From contig CAWHCQ010000011.1 of assembly GCA_963827755.1 (NCBI GenBank), positions 64,001 to 128,000 of the forward strand: 64,000 nt of DNA, written 5' to 3'. Positions 33,178-46,234 of the stretch are shown piece after piece; positions within the stretch are counted from its first letter, which is position 1; the number at the start of each line of letters is the position of its first letter. The notes below the pieces were generated by a model. That model saw nothing but the letters and a program-made list of their open reading frames with translations, searched no databases and had not been told where the DNA came from. Origin of the DNA: an uncultured Gammaproteobacteria bacterium. Its GTDB lineage: Bacteria > Pseudomonadota > Gammaproteobacteria > UBA9214. Made by a program: the position numbers and the translations under genes.

Positions 33178-34602
33178 ATGGAATTTCGTAATACATTACC
33201 ACTCGCACGAATAGCCCTTGTGGCGGTTGTGAGTGGCGCACTCGGCCTGGCAACGTTACAGGCAGGCGCAGAGAACAAGGCGTCTGGCGCGGGCCTGTTG
33301 CCAGCCAATGCGCAACCCGGTCAGTGTTATGCCAAGGTCATGATACCCGCCAAGTATAAAACGAGCGAAGAGAAGGTGGTCATTGTCGAGGCTGGCGAGA
33401 AGATTGAAATCATTCCTGCCAAGTACGAGTGGACCGAGGTGAGAGTGCCGCTGCAGCAGGAATCGGAAAAATTGATTGCTGTTCCGGCAGTATACGAAAC
33501 CGTCGAGGAAAAGATTTTACTCGAGCCCGCGCGCACGGTGTGGCGTTCCGGTCCGGGGGCCAAGGCACGTGACATTTCCGACCGTGACCTTGCCACTGCG
33601 CAGGCACTTGGCCTGGCGAAGACTGCCAAGGCCGGTCAGTGCTACAACGAGTTCTACAAGCCGGCGGAATTCGAAGTAAAAACAGAGAAGCTGCTGAAGA
33701 CTGCGGCATCCGAGAAGATCACCACGACCGAACCGGAGTTCAACTGGGTCGAGGAAAAGGTGCTGGTCAAGGAAGCTTCCCAGAAGTTTGTCAACGTTCC
33801 CGCCAAGTACAACATCGTCAAGGAAAAAGTGCTTGAGTCACCTGCCTACACGACCTGGAAGACCGGCCGTGGCATGAACGAGCGAATCGACAATGCCACC
33901 GGCGAAATCATGTGCCTTGTGGAAGTGCCGGCCAAGTACACCACGATCGAGAAGCGTGTGCTGGTCTCACCGGCCACCATCAAGAAGGTGGAAGTTCCGG
34001 CAGAGTACAACACCGTGCGTGTCAAGAAGCTCATCAAAAAATCGGCCGAGAGCCGCAAGCCGGTCGAGGCCGAGTACCAGACCGTTTCCAGGCGTATCAA
34101 GGTGTCAGATGCCGGGGTCAGCTGGAGTATGGCGGGTATGCGGGGCGAAGGCGAAGCAACCGGCAGGACCTATTGCCTGTCTGAAGTACCTGCGAAATAC
34201 AAGACCATCACCAAGCGCGTCGTGAAGACGCCGGCCACGGTCAAGAAAATGGCTGTTCCGGCGACCTTCAAGACGGTGCGCATGAGCAAGCTGGTGTCTC
34301 CTGCAAAGGAGAAGCGCATTCCGATTCCCGCGAAGCACAAGATCGTGCAGAAGCAGGTCAAGGTATCGGATGCAAGCCAGGAGTGGCGCCAGGTATTGTG
34401 CGAGACCAATACAACGCCTGACCTTGTCATGCAAATCCAGCGTGCCCTGCAAAGGGCCGGTCAGAACCCGGGGCCGATTGACGGTGTCCTGGGTCGTTCA
34501 ACGATGGCGGCTGCGGATGCCTACCAGCGCAGAAACAACCTGCCGACCGGTGGTCTGACAATTCAGACGCTTGAGAAGCTGGGCATTAGACTCGGCAGCT
34601 AG
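33178..34602 (+). CDS. Exported repeat protein with C-terminal peptidoglycan-binding domain
   Basis: Signal peptide; 12 PA.Y-type repeats with 23-aa period; IQRAL...G..PGPIDG..G..T..A...YQ PG_binding_1-like end. Confidence 0.85.
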   Translation: MEFRNTLPLARIALVAVVSGALGLATLQAGAENKASGAGLLPANAQPGQCYAKVMIPAKYKTSEEKVVIVEAGEKIEIIPAKYEWTEVRVPLQQESEKLIAVPAVYETVEEKILLEPARTVWRSGPGAKARDISDRDLATAQALGLAKTAKAGQCYNEFYKPAEFEVKTEKLLKTAASEKITTTEPEFNWVEEKVLVKEASQKFVNVPAKYNIVKEKVLESPAYTTWKTGRGMNERIDNATGEIMCLVEVPAKYTTIEKRVLVSPATIKKVEVPAEYNTVRVKKLIKKSAESRKPVEAEYQTVSRRIKVSDAGVSWSMAGMRGEGEATGRTYCLSEVPAKYKTITKRVVKTPATVKKMAVPATFKTVRMSKLVSPAKEKRIPIPAKHKIVQKQVKVSDASQEWRQVLCETNTTPDLVMQIQRALQRAGQNPGPIDGVLGRSTMAAADAYQRRNNLPTGGLTIQTLEKLGIRLGS

Positions 34603-36319: not shown

Positions 36320-36919
36320 ATGTACCTGGTGTTAAAGAATACAGTCTTGCCGGGCATATTTGTTGCGCTTGTCACGGCCTGCACAGATGCACAGGTACTG
36401 CATAGCGTTAACGAGGAGAACGGACTGCAGACATGGCATTTTATCGATGGTGACATAGAGATTGAACTGGTACAGCGGTTGCCGGACCAGAGCCGTGCCC
36501 TGTTTATGAAGCATGAATTCTCCCGCGATGTCATCGAGAGCCTGGCACTGAGTTGCATGATGCAGACCATTATCCGCAATAGTGGCAAATCAGGCAGCGG
36601 ACAGGCCGTGTCGATTGACCTGACCCGGTGGCGCATGCAGCACAAGGGCGTGACCAGTGGCATCAGGCTGAAGGAGCAGTGGCTGGCCTCCTGGTCGGAC
36701 GAGCAAGCCAGCCCGGCAGCAAGGCTGATCGTTCGCTGGGGCCTGTTCCCGACGCAGCAGGAATACCTGCCGGGCGACTATAACTGGGGATTGACGACCT
36801 ACGGGATAGCGCCGGGCTCGGTATTCGATCTTGCAGTAAGCTGGGAAGAGGGGGGCAAGCCCCGTTCCGGGAAAATCAGCAACATCGTCTGTGCACCGGA
36901 TGTGGATAAACTGAAATGA
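36320..36919 (+). CDS. Hypothetical exported or lipoprotein
   Basis: Lipobox-like LVTAC; stop overlaps the start of the TlpA-like gene. Confidence 0.7.
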   Translation: MYLVLKNTVLPGIFVALVTACTDAQVLHSVNEENGLQTWHFIDGDIEIELVQRLPDQSRALFMKHEFSRDVIESLALSCMMQTIIRNSGKSGSGQAVSIDLTRWRMQHKGVTSGIRLKEQWLASWSDEQASPAARLIVRWGLFPTQQEYLPGDYNWGLTTYGIAPGSVFDLAVSWEEGGKPRSGKISNIVCAPDVDKLK

Positions 36920-37426
36920 TTGTAATGAAAACCCTGCAGGGCCTTGCAATATTGCTGCTGATGCTGGCCGGCATGGCCCGTGCGGACCAGACCATGACGG
37001 TGATCCCGGGCGGGATCGAGGCGCCGGACTTTGTTTTGCAGGATACAGAAGGCAAGACGCATCGCTTGTCCGATTATCGCGGCAAGCCGGTCATTATTAA
37101 TTTCTGGACCACCTGGTGCCCGCCATGTCGTGAGGAAATTCCCTCCATGAACCGCGCATGGCACCTGCTTGAAGACGGAGGACATCGCGCTGCTCGCCAT
37201 CAACATGGGTGAAGATGAAGACACCATCTTTATCTTTACCGCGGATTACCCCGCAGACTTTCCAGTGCTGATGGACAGGGAAGGCGAGGTCATTGCCGAG
37301 TGGCCGGTAAAAGGGTTGCCGACGACCTATGTCGTCGCACCCGATGGGACGCTTGCCTACCGGGCAATTGGCAGCCGGGAGTGGGATGACAAGGCGCTGC
37401 TGGATGCGGTGCGCGCCCTGAAGTAA
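36916..37426 (+). CDS. TlpA/ResA-family thiol-disulfide oxidoreductase (frameshift near 37175)
   Basis: APDF.L, INFWTTWCPPC; the second frame gives AIN.GED and GLPTTY. Confidence 0.88.
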
Positions 37427-37870
37427 GTACACAGCAGGCCGGATTCAACAGATCACTGTGTCGGGGATATGGTGTGCAATGCCAGTCATTCGTGAATCCG
37501 GCCCCTGCGATACCCTCGCTGATAACCGCCCGGGACACGGGATTGCCCGGGACGAGATTCAGTATTACCCGTTGTTGCCGGGCAAACCGGGATGGCCGTC
37601 ACACATCCGGAGATCGGCGACGGTTAGCAGGCGATAGCAATACCCCGGGGTGAAATGTTTCAGGCATTACCGGTTTTCCGTTCAAGTGGCAGCACGTCGG
37701 GGTGCAGTTCGTTCAGCGGTATCGACAGGCCGTTGTTTCCAACGACACGCGCATGAAAACGGCGCAATTCACGGGGCTCCCTGACACCGCAGGAATGTGC
37801 GATCAAGCCGACTTCATGTGGACAATGCTACCTGCTTGTATCTATGGACAGGTCATTAACCGGCTGGTAC

Positions 37871-38524
37871 TCAGCGCCTCTTGCTGGTCCTCCAGGTACG
37901 TGAAATCCAGTCATCAACGCTGAAGTACCTGCCCGCACCAATGAAGAACAGGGCCAGCAGCATGATGAAGTAGGTGGCGGCAAATTCAATGCCGTTGTTG
38001 AGGATCACCAGGCTGCCGTTTTCGGTGATCCAGCTGTAGTTGGCCTGTTCCTGCAGGATTGCCTTGGCCATGTCCAGGCGTTCGATGGCGCCTTGCGTTC
38101 GTTCGCTGGCGAAGAAACCGTCCCCTGCGGCGATTGCCAGCCAGCCGTTTGGTAAATGTACGGTTACGGCTGCAACCACCATGGTGATCATCAGCGGGAT
38201 GGATATCCAGCGTACCGCCAGGCCGATCAGCAGCAGGATGGCCCCGAAGTATTCCGTGTAGGACGCCAGGTAGGCCATGACCTCGGGGAAGGGCAGGCCA
38301 AGCCCCCAGTCCGGGTTGCCGAACCAGTCAATCACGTCCTGCTTGGGTACAAGGCTGCAGCCGGCCTCGCTGTCGAGACAGTCCAGTCCGGCATTTTCAA
38401 GCTTGTGAACACCGCCCATCCAGAAAATCGGCACCAGGTAGAGGCGCAAGGCGAGTGGTGCAAGAAAATCAAGCGCGCGTGTCCGGTCCAGCAGGTCCTG
38501 CATGCCGTTGAGTAAACCTGTCAT
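37871..38524 (-). CDS. DoxX-family membrane protein (HvfX-like)
   Basis: LRLYL, WFGNPDWGLGLPFP, VH..NGW and NNGIEF; last gene of the DUF692 operon. Confidence 0.88.
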   Translation of the reverse strand: MTGLLNGMQDLLDRTRALDFLAPLALRLYLVPIFWMGGVHKLENAGLDCLDSEAGCSLVPKQDVIDWFGNPDWGLGLPFPEVMAYLASYTEYFGAILLLIGLAVRWISIPLMITMVVAAVTVHLPNGWLAIAAGDGFFASERTQGAIERLDMAKAILQEQANYSWITENGSLVILNNGIEFAATYFIMLLALFFIGAGRYFSVDDWISRTWRTSKRR

Positions 38525-38562
38525 GACTATCTCCTCGGTTTTTGTCCTGCTTTAACGCAGGA

Positions 38563-39348
38563 TCAGAATCGTTTTGTGCCCGGCAAAATATCTTTTTCAT
38601 GCAAGCCGTTCATTATTTCAGCGCCGCCTTTGACCACAACCCCGGGCCGGGGGTGAGACAACTCGGCTGCGATCCGTTCAAGTAACTGTTCACCGCTGGA
38701 GTTGCTGTCTTCCGCGATGAGTTCCAGCAGGCGCTTGGTGACCGGGTTGACCTCCATGAATCCGACCTTGTCCTCACTGTCACGGTAGACGACCAGCAGG
38801 GTCGGGTTCTCACCGGCTTGTTGCGGCAGGAAGTCCGGGCCGATCTTGTGAACCGGGTATTGATAGACAAGCTGCCAGGCCAGCGGTGATAGTACCGGGA
38901 TACCGGTCATCAGGTCACCCTCCGGGTCGATAGTATCCTGCTCGAGGGTTGCCTCGGAAATCGACAGGGCGAGTTCCACCCATTCGTAATGGGCCAGTTC
39001 GTGGAGAAAGGGAAAATCGCCGGGTTCGTGCCGGCGTTCATTTTCAAGCCAGCCGAGGAATTCACGCGGGATCTCCAGGAACAGCGGGCTGCGGGACTGG
39101 TGGCCGGAGAAAAAACCGCGCACCAGCCTGTGCCAGGCCTCGTCTTGATAAATCTTCCTCAGTACCGGGAAGGTGCCGGCAAGAAAATTCTCGACGTTAT
39201 TGTAGAACAACTCGCGGTAGATCTGCATGCGCCGGTCTTCAACATCATCCGGTGCAGGTTTGTGCTCCGGGTCGCGAATATGCGCAGCGAACTGGTACTG
39301 CCGGCGGGTAAATTCAGGCCTTGATTCCACGGGTAATGCCCTTGTCAT
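38563..39348 (-). CDS. DUF2063 MNIO partner protein (HvfC/BufC-like)
   Basis: [22 protein letters not shown] and [10 protein letters not shown]. Confidence 0.9.
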
Positions 39349-40180
39349 GCGTTGCACCCTGTTTTTTCTGCAGGCTTGCAATCTGTTCGACCTCGGCCAG
39401 CAATTCGGGCAGCGGGGGTATATTGAAATCGCGTTCAAGCAATGTCGGGACTACCCCGAAATGCTCATAGGCGGTTTCCAGCAATGACCAGACCGGGTCG
39501 ATGATGTCTGCCCCGTGGGTATCGACCTTCAGGTCTTCGGCTTCATCGTAGTGGCCGGCAATATGAAAATATGCAATGCGCCCGGCCGGCAGCGCTTTCA
39601 GGAATTGTTCCGCGTCATAGCGGTGGTTGATGCTGTTGACGTAGATATTATTCACGTCCAGCAGCAGGTCGCAGTCGGCTTCCTCGAGGACCGCGTTGAT
39701 GAAATCAATTTCGTCCATTTCCTTGCCGGGTGCCGCGTAGTAGGAAACATTCTCCATGGCAATGCGCCGTTCAAGAATATCCTGCACGCGGCGGATACGG
39801 GCTGCAACATAGTGAACGGCCTCTTCGGTAAACGGAATCGGCATCAGGTCATAGAGGTGGCCATCGTCACTGCAATAGCTCAGGTGCTCGGTATAGAAGC
39901 GAAAATTATGCTGGTCCAGCAGGCGTTTCACCCGGTGGAGAAAGGTCTCGTCCAGTGGTGACGGGCTGCCGATCGACAGGGACAGGCCGTGTGCAACAAA
40001 GGGGTAGCGTTCCGTGAAGTGGCGAAAATCCTTGCCGGGTTTGCCACCCATGCCAATCCAGTTTTCCGGCGCGACTTCAAAAAAATCGACAGACTCCGGC
40101 GGATTGTCCCGCAGCGGACCCATGAGGGTCCGCCGCAGTCCAAGTCCTGTCCCTGTAACAGGGTATTGTTTCGGGATCAC
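39314..40180 (-). CDS. DUF692 multinuclear non-heme iron oxidative enzyme (HvfB/BufB-like)
   Basis: GLGLR, EVAPENW, HGLSLS, EHLS, ENVS, LDVNN, HIAGH, DTHG and LERD. Confidence 0.95.
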
Positions 40181-40198
40181 GACAGCTGTGCAGGGTGA

Positions 40199-40654
40199 TT
40201 ACTTCATGCCGCCACACTTGCCTTCACCGCACTTGGCTTCCATCACCTTGCCGGCTTTTCCTGCGGCACCGCACTTGCCTTCACCGCACTTGCCTTCCAT
40301 TGCCTTCATTTCATCGGCACTGATTACGCCATCGTGATTCGCATCTTTACTGTTGAACATGGCCTCGTGCCCTTTCATGAACTCGTCCCTGGTGATGTTG
40401 CCATCTCCATCGGCGTCCATGCTCTGCATGCCGCACTTGCCTTCACCGCACTTGGCTTCCGTTGTCTTGGCGGCACCGCACTTGCCTTCACCGCACTTGC
40501 CTTCATGAGACGCCGCAACCATGTAGCCACTGGAAAGGGTAGACATGGCAAACGGGTTATCTGCTGCGTTGGCAACCGGGGTAGCGGCGAGCGTGGTAAC
40601 AAACGCGGTACCGAGCGCAATAGCCATGGGTTTCAGGGTTGTTTTTTGTGACAT
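40199..40654 (-). CDS. Secreted RiPP precursor with 8 E(G/A)KCG repeats and two EF-hand loops (HvfA/bufferin-like)
   Basis: Sec signal (..ANA|), NPF leader-like motif, two blocks of 4 KCG motifs flanking DADGDGNITRDE and DANHDGVISADE. Confidence 0.9.
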   Translation of the reverse strand: MSQKTTLKPMAIALGTAFVTTLAATPVANAADNPFAMSTLSSGYMVAASHEGKCGEGKCGAAKTTEAKCGEGKCGMQSMDADGDGNITRDEFMKGHEAMFNSKDANHDGVISADEMKAMEGKCGEGKCGAAGKAGKVMEAKCGEGKCGGMK

Positions 40655-40745
40655 TGGATATGCTCCATTATGGGTTTGATTCAGAGGGGGCAGGCGCCCC
40701 GCGTGTTTTCGGTCGCTTGCCACGACCTGTGCTTGTGTCAGTCAC

Positions 40746-40773
40746 TCCGACATACAAGGGTTCAAAAAGTTTC
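40746..40773 (-). promoter_or_regulatory. Candidate ECF (RpoE/AlgU-like) promoter of the RiPP operon
   Basis: Minus strand GAAACTT-N16-TCGGA, about 90 nt before the precursor ATG. Confidence 0.5.
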
Positions 40774-40874
40774 TCGTGACGGCGGAGTATTGGTTTCTGC
40801 AAATGTTCTTATGTTCAACAAGGCTGCATATGGCAACCGCACCGAACCATACAGCAAAATGTAGTCGATTGTAA

Positions 40875-41510
40875 TCATTCAACATTCTTCTGTTTATACT
40901 CACAAAGATCGAAGATGCAACAGGACCCGCAGCGTGGTTTTCGGGCGATACAGGTATAGCGTCCGTGCAGGATCAGCCAGTGGTGGGCATCCTGCCTGAA
41001 TTCATCCGGCACCAGGCGCAGCAGGCGCTGCTCGACTTCCAGGACGTTTTTGCCGGGCGCGATGCCGGTGCGGTTTGCAACCCGGAATATATGCGTGTCC
41101 ACGGCAATGGTCGGCTGGCCGAAGGCCGTGTTCAGGACGACGTTTGCCGTTTTGCGGCCAACACCGGGCAGGGCCTCCAGTGCAGCACGCTGTTGCGGTA
41201 CTTTTCCGGCGTGCTGTTCGACCAGGATTGCACAGGTCTTGATGATGTTTTTTGCCTTGGTGTTGAACAGCCCGATGGTCTTGATATGGTCCTTCAGGCC
41301 GGCCTCGCCCAGCTTCAGCATGGCAGCGGGTGTCTTCACTTTCCTGAACAGGGCCCGGGTTGCCTTGTTCACGCCGACATCCGTTGACTGGGCCGACAGC
41401 ATCACGGCAATCAGTAACTGGAACGGGTTAGCGTACTTGAGTTCCGTGGTCGGGTGGGGGTTTTCCGCGCGCAGGCGTGTGAAGATTTGCTGGCGTTTGC
41501 TGCGGTTCAC
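40875..41510 (-). CDS. nth: Endonuclease III
   Basis: LSAQ, LPGVGRKTA, VDTH and C-x6-C-x2-C-x5-C. Confidence 0.97.
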   Translation of the reverse strand: MNRSKRQQIFTRLRAENPHPTTELKYANPFQLLIAVMLSAQSTDVGVNKATRALFRKVKTPAAMLKLGEAGLKDHIKTIGLFNTKAKNIIKTCAILVEQHAGKVPQQRAALEALPGVGRKTANVVLNTAFGQPTIAVDTHIFRVANRTGIAPGKNVLEVEQRLLRLVPDEFRQDAHHWLILHGRYTCIARKPRCGSCCIFDLCEYKQKNVE

Positions 41511-41525
41511 TGCGCGCGGTCGGCC

Positions 41526-42215
41526 TCAGGCCCCGGCGGCCTGGATGGCCGTGGTATCGACCACCTCAAGCCTTGCCTGGCGACGCGCATTGATGACGTT
41601 CATGCCGGCAATCAAAAAACCCAGTCCCAGGAATGCGCCGGGCGGCAGGATGGCCAGCAGGAAACCACGGTAGTTGTCGATCACGGTCACCGTGAACTGG
41701 CGGCCGATCTCGCCGAACATGAGGTGTGCCTGTGACAGCAGGGTGCCCTGTCCAATGAGTTCGCGCAGTCCGCCGAGTGTCACCAGTACCAGGGTAAAGC
41801 CGATGCCCATGGCAACGGCGTCGAGCAGGGCCCGGTCCATGCTGTGCCGGGATGCGAACGATTCGGCGCGGCCAATAATGGCGCAGTTGGTAACGATCAG
41901 CGGAATGAAAATACCGAGAATCTTGTACAGGTCGTGCAGCCACGCATTCATGGCCAGTTCGATGATGGTGACGACCGATGCAATCACCAGCACGAACACC
42001 GGGATACGCACTTCAGGCCGGACCAGCTTGCGTATCAGGGAAACGATACCGTTGGAAAATACCAGTGTCAGCAGGGTCGCGAGCCCCAGGCCGAGGCCAT
42101 TGATGACCGAGGTGGTCACGGCCAGCAGCGGGCACAGACCCAGCAGCTGCACCAGGCCGGCATTGTTGGACCAGAGGCCGTCCTTGAGGATGCTTGAATA
42201 GGTCGGTGCATTCAT
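41526..42215 (-). CDS. rnfE: Rnf/Rsx complex subunit E
   Basis: LGLCPLLAV, IPLIVTNC, RAE and LPPGAF. Confidence 0.95.
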   Translation of the reverse strand: MNAPTYSSILKDGLWSNNAGLVQLLGLCPLLAVTTSVINGLGLGLATLLTLVFSNGIVSLIRKLVRPEVRIPVFVLVIASVVTIIELAMNAWLHDLYKILGIFIPLIVTNCAIIGRAESFASRHSMDRALLDAVAMGIGFTLVLVTLGGLRELIGQGTLLSQAHLMFGEIGRQFTVTVIDNYRGFLLAILPPGAFLGLGFLIAGMNVINARRQARLEVVDTTAIQAAGA

Positions 42216-42249
42216 TGTCTATTAGCCCGGTGTTCCGTGTAGCTGTTCC

Positions 42250-42359
42250 GACGGGTACGCTGCGCTTTACCCGTCCTGCGAAGCGCCCGAAACCGTAGGA
42301 TGGGTAAAGGCCAAAGGCCGTACCCATCAAGACGGGTACGCTGCGCTTTACCTGCCCTG
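42250..42359. repeat. REP cluster, family A, 3 copies
   Basis: Copies at 42250-42279, 42295-42328 (inverted) and 42331-42359. Confidence 0.9.
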
Positions 42360-43001
42360 TTCATTGCCTGTCGCGGATGCCTGTTTTCCGGCTGCAAGCA
42401 GTGTCTCCTGGTGCTGGCGATAGTATAACAGCGCATTGCGCACCGCCTGTACCACGGCGCGCGGGGTGATGGTCGCGCCGGTGAGCTGGTCGAAGTCGCC
42501 GCCGTCTTTCCTGACTTTCCAGCGATCCACCGGCGGCTGCTCCAGCGAGCGGCCGGTAAACCCGAGGATCCAGTCAGAGCGATCCTCGTCGATGGCGTCG
42601 CCGAGGCCGGGGGTTTCCCGGTGGGCCACTGCACGGACACCGCTGAGCGTGCCGTCTGTATTGATGCCGACCAGCAATTTTATCGAGCCGCTATAGCCAT
42701 CCGGGGCAATCGGCGCGATGACGAGGGCAACGGCCTTGCCGGCCTTTCTGGCACGGTAGACCATGACTGGCTCAGCGCTGCCGAGCAGCTTCTGGTCACG
42801 TACCTCGATGGCGTCATCAAGCAGGATATTGTCATGCCGGTCGGGTGGAACCAGGCGGTGCAGTTTGCGCAGCAGGGTGGCGCGCTCATTGGCGGCAATC
42901 CGTTCGCGGGTGTTATCAAATGTAAAGGACACCAGCCCGGTACCGATGACCGCGAATATCAGCAGGATAATAGTGGTGATGATGATCTGGCGATAATTCA
43001 T
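42348..43001 (-). CDS. rnfG: Rnf/Rsx complex subunit G
   Basis: APDGYSG, HRETPGLG and FMN site TGATIT. Confidence 0.95.
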   Translation of the reverse strand: MNYRQIIITTIILLIFAVIGTGLVSFTFDNTRERIAANERATLLRKLHRLVPPDRHDNILLDDAIEVRDQKLLGSAEPVMVYRARKAGKAVALVIAPIAPDGYSGSIKLLVGINTDGTLSGVRAVAHRETPGLGDAIDEDRSDWILGFTGRSLEQPPVDRWKVRKDGGDFDQLTGATITPRAVVQAVRNALLYYRQHQETLLAAGKQASATGNEQGR

Positions 43002-44023
43002 GGCTTGTCATCGTGGCCGTAGACGACAGGCCGGGTGTAGTAATCGATGGTCGGAGCTGCCATGTTCATCAGCAGGACGGCAAAGGCAACGCCGTCGGGG
43101 TATCCGCCCCAGGTACGGATGATGTAGGTCAGCAAGCCGATGCCGGCCGCGTAGTAGATGCGACCGCGCGGTGTGGTGCTGGCAGAGACCGGGTCGGTTG
43201 CAATAAAAAAGGCCCCGAGCATCGCGGCCCCGCTGAACAGGTGAAACAGGGGTGTAGAATAGATGTCCGGGTTGATGACATGGAACAGCAGGGCGATCAC
43301 AGCCAGTGCGCCGAGCATGCCTGCCGGGATCTGCCACTGGATGACCCTTTGCTGTAACAGCCACAGGCCACCGAGCAGGAACCATGTATTGATCCACTCC
43401 CAGCCGGCACCGGCAAACAGGCCGAACAGCGGCCCACCCCTGATTTCGGTGAGTGTCTCGCTAAGACCGATCCGGGTCTTGATTGTGTCCATGGGCGTGG
43501 CCATGGTGATGGCATCGAGTGACAGACCGACCGGCAGCTGGCCGGTAAACACAAGGGAAAGTGTCTCCAACAGCTGCAGGGACTCACCGACCGGTGTCCA
43601 CAGGGTCAGTTCCAGCGGGAATGAAACAAGCAGGACGACATAACCGGCCATGGCCGGGTTGAAGGGGTTATAGCCGAGCCCGCCGTAGAGTTGCTTGGCA
43701 ATGACGATGGCAAACAGGCTGCCGATAACCGGTATCCACCAGGGGGCAAGCGGTGGCAGCGCCAGTGCAAGCAGCACACCGGTCAACAGCGCGCTGCAAT
43801 CCAGCAGTGCCGGTTTGACCGGGCGCCTGCGCAGCATCAGCATGCCGGCCTCTGCCGCGATTGCAGCCAGTGCTGCAAGCAGGATGTTGATCAATATGCC
43901 CCAGCCGAACATCCAGAAGGCGCAGGCGGTGCCGGGTATCAGGGCAAGCAGGACGCGTTGCATCATCGCGGCTACGCTTTCGGCAACCGGCAGGTGAGGT
44001 GAGCTGTAGGTCCTGAATTCCAT
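42998..44023 (-). CDS. rnfD: Rnf/Rsx complex subunit D
   Basis: SSPH, KQLYGGLG.NPFNPA, TMATP and FFIATDP. Confidence 0.95.
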   Translation of the reverse strand: MEFRTYSSPHLPVAESVAAMMQRVLLALIPGTACAFWMFGWGILINILLAALAAIAAEAGMLMLRRRPVKPALLDCSALLTGVLLALALPPLAPWWIPVIGSLFAIVIAKQLYGGLGYNPFNPAMAGYVVLLVSFPLELTLWTPVGESLQLLETLSLVFTGQLPVGLSLDAITMATPMDTIKTRIGLSETLTEIRGGPLFGLFAGAGWEWINTWFLLGGLWLLQQRVIQWQIPAGMLGALAVIALLFHVINPDIYSTPLFHLFSGAAMLGAFFIATDPVSASTTPRGRIYYAAGIGLLTYIIRTWGGYPDGVAFAVLLMNMAAPTIDYYTRPVVYGHDDKP

Positions 44024-45681
44024 CAGTCGGATGAGTTGCCCTGTCGTCTTTTATCGGCTGCATCGATGAGATGTTGCTGTTCGGGTGTCAGGTTGTCGAT
44101 GTTTCTCGGTGTAACCTCCGCCGCTGCCTTTTTTTGTTTGACGCGTTCCAGGGCGGCTTCAATGGCAGCCTTCTTGGCAGCGTTGCCGTCATCTTTCGAG
44201 AGCGCCTGTTTTTTGCGGGACTGCCGCTCGGCGCGTTCCTGCTTGATGCGCGCAAGCCTTGCCAGGCGCGCTTCGTGCCGCTGACGGGCGATGTCGGATG
44301 CCTTCTTCTGCTCCTCCTGCGACCAGATTTCGGTCTTCGCATGGCGGTAATACTGAACCAGCGGAATATGGCTCGGGCACACGTAGGCGCAGCAGCCACA
44401 CTCGATGCAGTCAAACAGGTCATAGTCCTGGGCGGCATCATGATTGCCGCTGCGCGTATACCAGTACAACTGTTGCGGCAGCAGGTCCGCGGGGCAGACC
44501 TCGGTGCATTTTCCGCAGCGTATGCATGGCTGCTCGAGTGGCGGCGCGGGCATTTCCTCGTGCGTGACCGCAAGAATGCAGTTGGTAGTCTTGACAACAG
44601 GGACGCTGTCCGTTGCCACCGCGTAACCCATCATCGGTCCGCCGATCAGCAGGCGTTCAATAGACTTTGTATAACCGCCGCAGCTGTTGACGAGGTGGCT
44701 GACCGGCGTACCCAGCAGTGCTTCGACATTGCGCGGGCTTGCGATGCCTTGCCCGGCAACGGTAACGATACGTGACAGCAGGGGCCGGTTCCTGGCAACG
44801 CTGTTGTAAATGGCGGCAGCCGTACCGACATTCTGGCAGATGACGCCAATATCCACCGGCAGACCCTGGCTCGGAACTTCGCGATTGGTCAATACCTTGA
44901 TCAACTGGCGTTCACCGCCGGTCGGGTAAATGTCGGGAACACGGACGACGCGGATAGCGGTTGCATTGCCTTTGTCGAGTACCGCGTCCAGCGCACGTCC
45001 GGCCTCGAGCATATGGTTTTCGATTGCAATGATGCAGCTATCCGCCTTGATGATGTGTTGTAAAATCCTGGTCCCTTCGATGACTTCTTCGGCCCGTTCC
45101 TGCAGCAAACGGTTGTCACAGGAAATATACGGTTCGCATTCGGCACCGTTGATCAATAGCAGGTCGATGTTGTAGCGCGCACCTGCAAGTTTGACCGGCG
45201 TCGGAAAGCCCGCACCGCCAAGGCCGACGATGCCTGACTGGCGGATCTGCGTGCACAGTGATGCCGGATCAATCGATGTGTAATCAAGCGCCGGCGCCGG
45301 GAGGTTCCCGCCACTGGTCCTTGCCGTCGGTTGCAATGATGATGCACGGGGCCTGCAAACCAGACGGGTGGGGAACGGGCCGGGGCTCTACCGCGATAAC
45401 CGTCCCGGAACTCGGAGGCATGGATGGGTGCGCTGACGGCACCGACCGGCTGCGCAACAGGCTGGCCCTTGTAGACGTAGTCACCGGTCTTCACCAGCGC
45501 ACTCGGCCGGTGTGCCGATATGTTGCAGCAGGGGCAATACCAGCTGCCCCGGAATGGTGACGGGCGCAATCGGCGTGGTAGATGTAACAGACTGTTTACT
45601 ATCGAGTTTCAGGCCACCATGAAACCTGTAGAGGCGCCCGTGGCCCGGCACTTTCACGCTGCTGGCGGCCGGGTCAGGCAT
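44023..45681 (-). CDS. rnfC: Rnf/Rsx complex subunit C (about three frameshifts in 45300-45520)
   Basis: [28 protein letters not shown] and two 4Fe-4S motifs; N-terminus split over ORFs 45481-45738, 45153-45569 and 45284-45484. Confidence 0.92.
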
Positions 45682-46234
45682 GCCGCTTGATATCGACGGG
45701 GTCACTGCCCGGTTTTGGCCATTTCCAGTCGAGCACACCGGTTTTCACCGGGACGATGTGTATGCATTCAACCGGGCAGGGCGCGATGCAGAGATCGCAG
45801 CCGGTACATTCTTTTTCGATCACGGTATGCATCTGTTTGGCGGCACCGAGTATTGCGTCAACGGGGCAGGCCTGGATACAGAGTGTGCAACCGATGCACA
45901 CTTCCTCGTCAATGACGACAACGGTTTTCTCTGCGTGTACACCATGCTCCGGATTCAGTGGTTTCGCATCCCTGCCAAGCAAGTCAGCCAGCGCCTGGAT
46001 GGTAATTTCTCCGCCTGGCGGGCACTGGTTGATGTCCGCTTCACCGGCGGCGATTGCTTCTGCGTAGGGCCGGCAGCCGGGGTAGGTGCATTGTCCGCAT
46101 TGTGTTTGCGGCAACAGTGCATCTATGCGGTCAACAACCGGGTCACTCTTTACTCGAAAACGAATCGCCGCATAAGCGAGTACCAGGCCAATCAGCAGGG
46201 CCAGGCTTCCCAATGCAAGTATTGCGGTCAACAT
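45674..46234 (-). CDS. rnfB: Rnf/Rsx complex subunit B
   Basis: [18 protein letters not shown] and two ferredoxin motifs. Confidence 0.95.

Follow-up and report, generated by a model that had tools for sequence, protein, structure and literature searches.

A putative copper-sequestering captophorin operon of an uncultured gammaproteobacterium, with an apparently accessory EF-hand cassette between two EGKCG repeat arms

Introduction

The closest described relatives of the system treated here are the Lys-Cys captophorins, namely oxazolin (HvfXABC), fontiphorin (FonABC) and gonophorin (NgoABC), which share with it the same enzyme families, the repeat unit and, as far as it is predicted here, Sec export. 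Formation of 5-thiooxazoles and Cu binding have been demonstrated for HvfA, FonA and NgoA. The 5-thiooxazole chemistry, that of HvfA included, was reported in 10.1101/2025.11.18.689057, where FonBC was also shown to modify a double EGKCG-type repeat in vitro, with products that bind Cu and aggregate with it. HvfA carries six modifications of -4 Da, which are made fully by HvfBC (PMC11252979). The available parts of the texts on HvfXABC, FonABC and NgoABC mention no EF-hand. This paper focuses on a related operon in a 64,000-nucleotide (nt) stretch of DNA from an uncultured gammaproteobacterium (contig CAWHCQ010000011.1; the whole stretch is called the window), the precursor gene of which encodes a pair of EF-hands between two arms of EGKCG-type repeats.

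An EF-hand fusion of this kind is already in print. Antoine et al. (2025; PMC12452194) distinguished two types among about 2,000 Buf_EGKCG precursors. One of them, the second, was described as 'a sizeable proportion' of the cluster; it consists of a short unstructured EGKCG domain followed by two EF-hand_5 domains, and was proposed to be involved in Cu and Ca homeostasis, with EfhP of Pseudomonas aeruginosa as the example. EfhP (PA4107) is a protein of about 155 amino acids (aa) with a signal peptide, encoded in the operon PA4107-PA4106-PA4105. Its two loops were located at residues 88-99 and 115-126, and its gene is operonic with DUF692 and DUF2063 genes (PMC4053335). Four EGKCG repeats were identified in the protein (10.1101/2024.01.09.574892), Ca was bound with a dissociation constant of 13.7 uM by recombinant EfhP cloned alone (PMC9132961), and regulation by BfmR was reported (PMC8025907). 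An earlier note on the window, made from the sequence alone, had known of no characterised member with an EF-hand insert; the chimaera class and the characterised Ca binding of EfhP contradict this.

The bufferins Buf1 and Buf2 of Caulobacter (PMC11626156) are a second group for comparison. They resemble the window operon in the order precursor-MNIO-DUF2063-DoxX, in the Sec signal, in control by an extracytoplasmic function (ECF) sigma factor and in Cu protection, as far as these are predicted here. In contrast to the window operon, they have folded DUF2282 or 6/12-Cys precursors under the control of SigF/NrsF. No match to DUF2282 was found in the window precursor.

Gene Content of the Operon

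In the earlier note, four co-oriented genes had been read, coding for a precursor, a DUF692 enzyme, a DUF2063 protein and a DoxX protein. This reading was confirmed by four open reading frames on the minus strand and by matches to hidden Markov models; the models for PF05114, DUF2063, DoxX and EF-hand, with which the note had proposed to check it, were all matched. The DUF692 enzyme is referred to below as the MNIO (oxidative enzyme that depends on multinuclear non-haem iron). The four genes are:

40199..40654, minus strand: precursor of the HvfA family, a Buf_EGKCG and EF-hand chimaera of two-sided layout, 151 aa, 8 Cys
39314..40180, minus strand: HvfB-family MNIO (DUF692), 288 aa, intact; PF05114, E 1e-107
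38563..39348, minus strand: HvfC/PME1 partner protein (DUF2063 and NGO1945_C), about 261 aa, start codon uncertain; PF09836 and PF22106
37871..38524, minus strand: HvfX/DoxX membrane protein, 217 aa; PF07681

The precursor gene is separated from the MNIO gene by 18 nt, the MNIO and DUF2063 genes overlap by 35 nt, and 38 nt lie between the DUF2063 and DoxX genes. The genome, which has 2.85 Mb and a completeness of 92%, contains each of these genes once. The matches of all three proteins encoded behind the precursor exceed the NCBIfam cut-offs for the Hvf system, with 454 bits for the MNIO (NF003818, cut-off 360), 324.5 bits for the DUF2063 protein (HvfC model NF050145, cut-off 142) and 219.3 bits for the DoxX protein (HvfX model NF050144, cut-off 80). 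The MNIO falls under the cut-off for BufB (NF050167, 275.6 versus 310), has 3BWW as its best match in the PDB (E 7.7e-76) and keeps all 19 His, Asp and Glu columns that are conserved at a level of at least 97% across 87 homologues. The precursor reaches 63.1 bits with the HvfA-family repeat model NF050137 (cut-off 19.5) and lies under the HvfA equivalog cut-off (NF050188, 60.2 versus 95); by these scores it is to be classed as a member of the HvfA family and not as HvfA itself. It also differs from the Lys-Cys captophorins by being devoid of the N-terminal disulfide Cys pair, and the DoxX gene, which comes first in nontypeable Haemophilus influenzae, is the last gene of the window operon.

All eight Cys residues of the precursor (54, 59, 69, 74, 123, 128, 142 and 147) are located inside E[GA]KCG units, and the two blocks of repeats, with the two EF loops between them, have the sequences given in the earlier note. 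The segments of the protein are:

40565..40654, minus strand: putative Sec signal peptide, residues 1-30; N-region with K4 and K8, hydropathy up to 1.89, A-N-A at 28-30
40430..40504, minus strand: N-terminal arm of four E[GA]KCG units (Cys54, 59, 69, 74), predicted to be disordered, with a model confidence (pLDDT) below 50 at residues 37-72
40382..40417, minus strand: canonical EF loop 1, residues 80-91, identified by PF13202, PF00036 and the loop pattern
40310..40345, minus strand: canonical EF loop 2, residues 104-115, separated from loop 1 by no more than 12 residues, a single helix common to both
40211..40297, minus strand: C-terminal arm of four E[GA]KCG units (Cys123, 128, 142, 147), predicted to be disordered, with a pLDDT below 50 at residues 124-151

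A Sec signal is thus marked as probable, with A-N-A as the likely cleavage site. PF13202 (EF-hand_5) matches the precursor in two stretches with 41 bits (cut-off 25.9), PF00036 is also above its cut-off, and among 100,000 residue shuffles of the precursor none yielded even one canonical EF loop. In an AlphaFold2 model based on 86 sequences (mean pLDDT 56), confidence was confined to the EF region at about residues 76-123, with helices predicted at 76-79, 89-103 and 113-123. A confident EF region with unstructured arms agrees with the available description of the chimaera class (PMC12452194). In a VIA structure comparison the best score was Z 3.9, with lanmodulin in the top row (root-mean-square deviation 2.4 over 49 residues); Foldseek gave no match at E 0.001 or better, and no solved homologue of the whole precursor was found in the PDB comparison.

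Presence and Absence of the EF-Hand Cassette in the Genus

The EF-hand pair was followed through 37 genomes of the genus, in 32 of which a match to the precursor was identified, with no match in the other 5. At the hvfB-adjacent locus, the cassette is present in 11 genomes and missing in 17, one of which looks frameshifted; one further locus is split across contig ends, and three are unclassified. In three sister pairs starred on the tree, one species carries the cassette and the other does not, while their MNIOs are 91.7, 98.2 and 92.3% identical. The sister species of the window organism has kept both arms and has extra repeat units at the cassette site. When the two-sided label is mapped on a quick maximum-likelihood tree with 87 MNIOs, 14 changes are required, 7 of which are forced by starred branches. 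The label is clustered overall on this tree (0 of 500 shuffles as low), and counts of changes of this kind do not separate gain from loss.

Where found, the cassette always has a length of 111 nt, and its ligands are kept at a DNA divergence of about 25%. A Mantel test between cassette and MNIO DNA distances in 10 genomes gave a rho of 0.23 (p 0.089). Direct repeats are present as five 45-nt copies, and recombination between such repeats appears to be the simplest route to a repeated loss of the cassette, gain being possible as well. In a contig from one independent run, positions 40298 and 40430 are joined with 14 different letters between them; the joint keeps the reading frame and agrees with the sister sequence, and is of a kind that often stems from relatives or from repeats.

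Taken together, the genomes of the genus indicate that the EF cassette is accessory, that is, apparently selected when present and dispensable for the cluster. The earlier note had suggested that the Ca-type module could control folding or maturation. An essential role of this kind is unlikely: the cassette would not be a required maturation switch, because sister species with MNIOs of 92-98% identity keep the operon without it.

An additional EF-hand/EGKCG precursor, an orphan with no MNIO beside it, was observed directly behind lpdA in five genomes of the genus (L161 in G003, L162 in G346, L163 in G005, L164 in G022 and L171 in G001). Four of these five genomes have a precursor without EF-hands at the main locus. 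Such an orphan is present in 0 of 11 genomes with the cassette and in 4 of 17 without it (Fisher p 0.13, with related genomes that are not independent of each other), and that the orphan and main-locus EF forms complement each other is only a lead. Orphan-like sequences were also found in G010, where the sequence is broken by a stop, and in G344, where it is partial.

Layout of the Precursor among Homologues

For comparison at the protein level, the best 120 of 6,744 matches were used, ranked by likeness to the query and including it. Repeats flank the EF pair on both sides in 119 of these 120 proteins. In all 115 homologues with two pattern-matching loops, the loops start 24 residues apart, and the ligands D1, G6 and E12 are invariant; D5 is present in 114. 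In the query, Cys74 lies six residues ahead of loop 1; alignment A1 shows this residue to be invariant. A survey of EGKCG precursors for EF-hands, as called for in the earlier note, covered the best 80 of 431 GTDB loci and gave 30 two-sided, 48 EF-less and 2 one-sided forms. Where the loci have room for it, an MNIO gene follows within 1 kb of the precursor in 23 of 28 two-sided, 42 of 45 EF-less and both one-sided cases. Two-sided forms belong to several orders and were seen in Pseudoxanthomonas, Lysobacter, Dokdonella, Thiobacillus and uncultured Gammaproteobacteria.

The homologues from Pseudomonas have a different layout. All repeats are N-terminal and the C-terminal arm is missing (120 of 120 proteins and 30 of 30 loci), the loops are 27 residues apart, and a tail of 29 residues follows loop 2. 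EfhP very probably is one-armed with 4 Cys as well, because its published loop spacing and tail match those of the one-sided Pseudomonas homologues; the EfhP sequence itself was not found by protein searches, by a plasmid tblastn or in 30 Pseudomonadaceae loci. EfhP and the window precursor have in common a signal peptide, which is putative in the latter, as well as four EGKCG repeats, a pair of EF loops and DUF692 and DUF2063 neighbours, but differ in the spacing of the loops (27 versus 24) and in the region behind them, which is a 29-residue tail in EfhP and a four-Cys arm in the window precursor.

With the chimaera class of PMC12452194, the window precursor shares a signal peptide (putative in its case), the EGKCG region, two EF-hand_5 domains and the MNIO-DUF2063-DoxX cluster. 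The EF-hands are placed C-terminally in the text description of the class, to which this comparison refers, whereas a second four-Cys arm follows them in the window precursor. As judged from the surveyed sequences, the two-sided layout is common and unlike that of EfhP, and the published class may already contain it. The earlier note had held that an existing description of the architecture would remove its novelty. Such a description largely exists, and what goes beyond its available text in the layout is the two-sided arms only. New here are the promoter described below and the orphan EF precursors behind lpdA.

Several EGKCG precursors of the survey have no MNIO match in the fetched flanks (L003, L013, L028, L069 and L089), some of them, such as L003, being still located behind nth. 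A divergent protein of the EGKCG family, in which the later repeats drift to other Cys-Gly units, is encoded at L154:660-1055 (G012), with no match to MNIO, DUF2063 or DoxX within the 3.5 kb fetched.

Promoter and Leader of the Operon

Two elements were identified between nth and the precursor gene:

40746..40773, minus strand: sigmaE (RpoE)-type promoter, with the -35 box at 40773-40767, a 16-nt spacer and a -10 box; conserved
40687..40727, minus strand: two leader hairpins, at 40727-40711 and 40700-40687; conserved

Of 29 loci of the genus examined, 26 have 260 nt or more of upstream sequence, and all 26 contain the promoter; a 27th locus with 254 nt also carries it. The background of the pattern in the genome is 0.0067 per 400 nt, the pattern having been relaxed once variants had been seen. 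A genome-wide promoter ranking used weights which were set after the motif was known, so that its first rank is no evidence. The promoter was found in none of the five orphan loci behind lpdA. Of 75 wider GTDB loci, 11 have it, and these do not include any from Lysobacterales or Pseudomonas.

The 16-nt geometry of the two boxes is that of the E. coli sigmaE promoter (PMC1312014). RpoE is encoded in the genome (TIGR02939, 316.5 versus a cut-off of 236.15), and the rpoH and rpoE promoters have the same geometry. Judged from the promoter, the operon is most likely transcribed under envelope stress via RpoE, which suggests that the cluster in this organism answers to envelope stress and not to a dedicated sigma factor or two-component system. 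EfhP differs in this respect, being regulated by BfmR. Among the titles and abstracts searched, none ties an EGKCG cluster to RpoE of Gammaproteobacteria, and scans for sigma-70 promoters and terminators gave no convincing site for the operon. A BfmR-like box (TACA-N6-TACA, about 220 nt upstream; compare PMC8025907) was considered and rejected, as it recurs in only one other of 110 upstream regions.

In the leader hairpins, 97% of the cells are paired, and hairpin 2 accounts for all 16 both-side changes; none of 500 shuffles gave so high a value. The compensatory changes of hairpin 2 include swaps from G-C to A-U in 7-8 of 18 sequences, and two species cleanly lack hairpin 1. The hairpins possibly stabilise the mRNA or form a regulatory leader. 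No Rfam match was obtained within 37300-41000.

Proposed Pathway

On these grounds, the system is probably a stress-induced, periplasmic, Cu-sequestering captophorin of the Hvf type with an accessory Ca-binding spacer. The earlier note had seen an operon of the Hvf or bufferin type, with modified Cys residues binding Cu and a Ca-type module, and this is supported by the model matches above the cut-offs and by the work on HvfA and FonA. Under envelope stress, the four genes would be transcribed, most likely through RpoE. The MNIO, together with the DUF2063 partner, would act in the cytoplasm and oxidise the Cys residues of the E[GA]KCG units to 5-thiooxazoles, with a loss of about 4 Da each at up to eight positions, as described for HvfA and FonA. 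This reading is supported because all eight Cys residues are located in EGKCG or EAKCG units, the kind which is modified by FonBC and HvfBC. The sulfur-bearing, oxazole-type product named in the earlier note stands, with the heterocycle now assigned specifically as 5-thiooxazole, also for HvfA. The precursor would then be exported by Sec with removal of residues 1-30. In the periplasm, the two disordered arms would bind and sequester Cu in the manner of HvfA, FonA and NgoA, and the central three-helix EF pair, by its canonical conserved ligands and by comparison with EfhP, would bind Ca2+. The pair would act as an accessory folded spacer or stabiliser that the pathway does not need.

Several points weigh against this proposal. 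The strict conservation of the EF ligands at about 25% DNA divergence implies that the cassette is selected for something. Metagenome assemblies are the source of most EF-less forms, a part of which could be repeat collapses. At the second position of the -35 box, nearly all copies have an A, where the E. coli consensus has a G, and a second ECF sigma factor is encoded in the genome. As regards induction by copper, a few near-identical contigs in RNA run X12 cover parts of the operon and show neither level nor strand. In the literature searched, which left most subscription papers uncovered, experiments on the window protein or on MNIO modification of an EF-bearing precursor were not found.

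As a discovery, the locus is modest, the cluster type being among the commonest RiPP (ribosomally made, post-translationally modified peptide) clusters of Pseudomonadota and the EF-hand fusion having been published. It is a useful test case for whether EF-bearing precursors are truly two-metal proteins, a question which applies to EfhP in the same way. Natural controls are offered by the genus, in the form of sister species with enzymes of 92-98% identity and precursors with or without the cassette.

Alternative Roles of the EF-Hand Pair

An unlikely alternative to an accessory spacer is a Ca-gated clamp. Here, the EF pair would be unfolded in the low-Ca cytoplasm, where both arms are modified and exported, and folding in the periplasm would join the arms into ordered Cu sites or control Cu release or aggregation. 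The last unit of the N-terminal arm abuts the EF module, and the fixed loop spacing, the invariant Cys74 and the recurrence of the two-sided layout across several orders are consistent with such a clamp; a scaffold could also solve the aggregation with Cu which is seen for EF-less EGKCG products. Against this, 17 genomes of the genus keep the operon without the cassette, the arms vary freely from 1 to 8 units per side, the Pseudomonas forms have no C-terminal arm, and the AlphaFold2 model contains no confident contacts of the arms. It is equally unlikely that two-sided chimaeras form a widespread subclass of their own, with Ca2+ folding the EF pair, spaced as in lanmodulin, only after export and clamping the two thiooxazole arms into defined Cu sites. 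If this were true, a second metal would act as the gate of a RiPP metallophore, with the gate added or removed between repeats in evolution, and EfhP would be an unrecognised captophorin, the phenotypes of which result partly from Cu or Fe binding.

It is improbable that the precursor mainly serves to sense or buffer Ca2+, the role proposed for EfhP, with the Cys arms being secondary or serving for Fe binding or disulfides. EfhP mutants show Ca-dependent phenotypes, and sensing of Fe by the repeats was proposed by the authors. EF precursors without an adjacent MNIO, as in 5 of 28 two-sided GTDB loci with room and at the orphan loci of the five genomes, also fit with this role. However, the precursor gene in the window stands first in an operon with intact hvfBCX genes, the variable part is the EF module while the Cys arms and the enzymes persist, and the published measurement on EfhP was made on the protein cloned without its MNIO.

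A lanmodulin-like lanthanide site in place of a Ca site is highly improbable. In favour of it, the 12 residues between the loops fall within the 12-13 of lanmodulin (PMC10232371), which can be aligned over both loops with no gap and is the top row in both sequence and fold, and 99 of 115 homologues have Asp at position 9 of the second loop. Against it, none of 234 loops contains Pro at position 2, position 9 is taken by Thr and Ser in the query, which has two loops instead of four, the LanM model NF053806 gives 29.6 against a cut-off of 135, the weak Z of 3.9 is equalled by rows of ordinary EF-hands, and a pyrroloquinoline quinone-dependent alcohol dehydrogenase above the TIGR03075 cut-off is present in 0 of 37 genomes of the genus.

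Genome Context and Further Observations

The operon follows nth on the same strand, behind a run of genes at 40875-46234 (minus strand). Upstream of nth, this run is made up of what we take to be rnf/rsx-like genes. A position behind nth is common to many Gammaproteobacteria among the surveyed loci. Nearly identical DNA was found in sediment and marine-sediment metagenomes, the best-matching of which may be the source itself.

Downstream of the operon, the coding sequence for a TlpA/ResA-like redoxin is divided between two frames, at 36916-37212 and 37169-37426 (plus strand), both halves of which match AhpC-TSA; the split would be due to a frameshift or to an assembly error. The lpdA gene of the genome (G000:C17:20617-22040) aligns as three pieces with changes of frame; taken with the split redoxin, it suggests that the assembly may contain indel errors.

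A protein of 474 aa which appears to be exported is encoded at 33178-34602 (plus strand). Most of it had no good family match in profile searches; it consists of Val/Lys/Pro-rich repeats with several Cys residues and ends in a C-terminal peptidoglycan-binding domain (PF01471).

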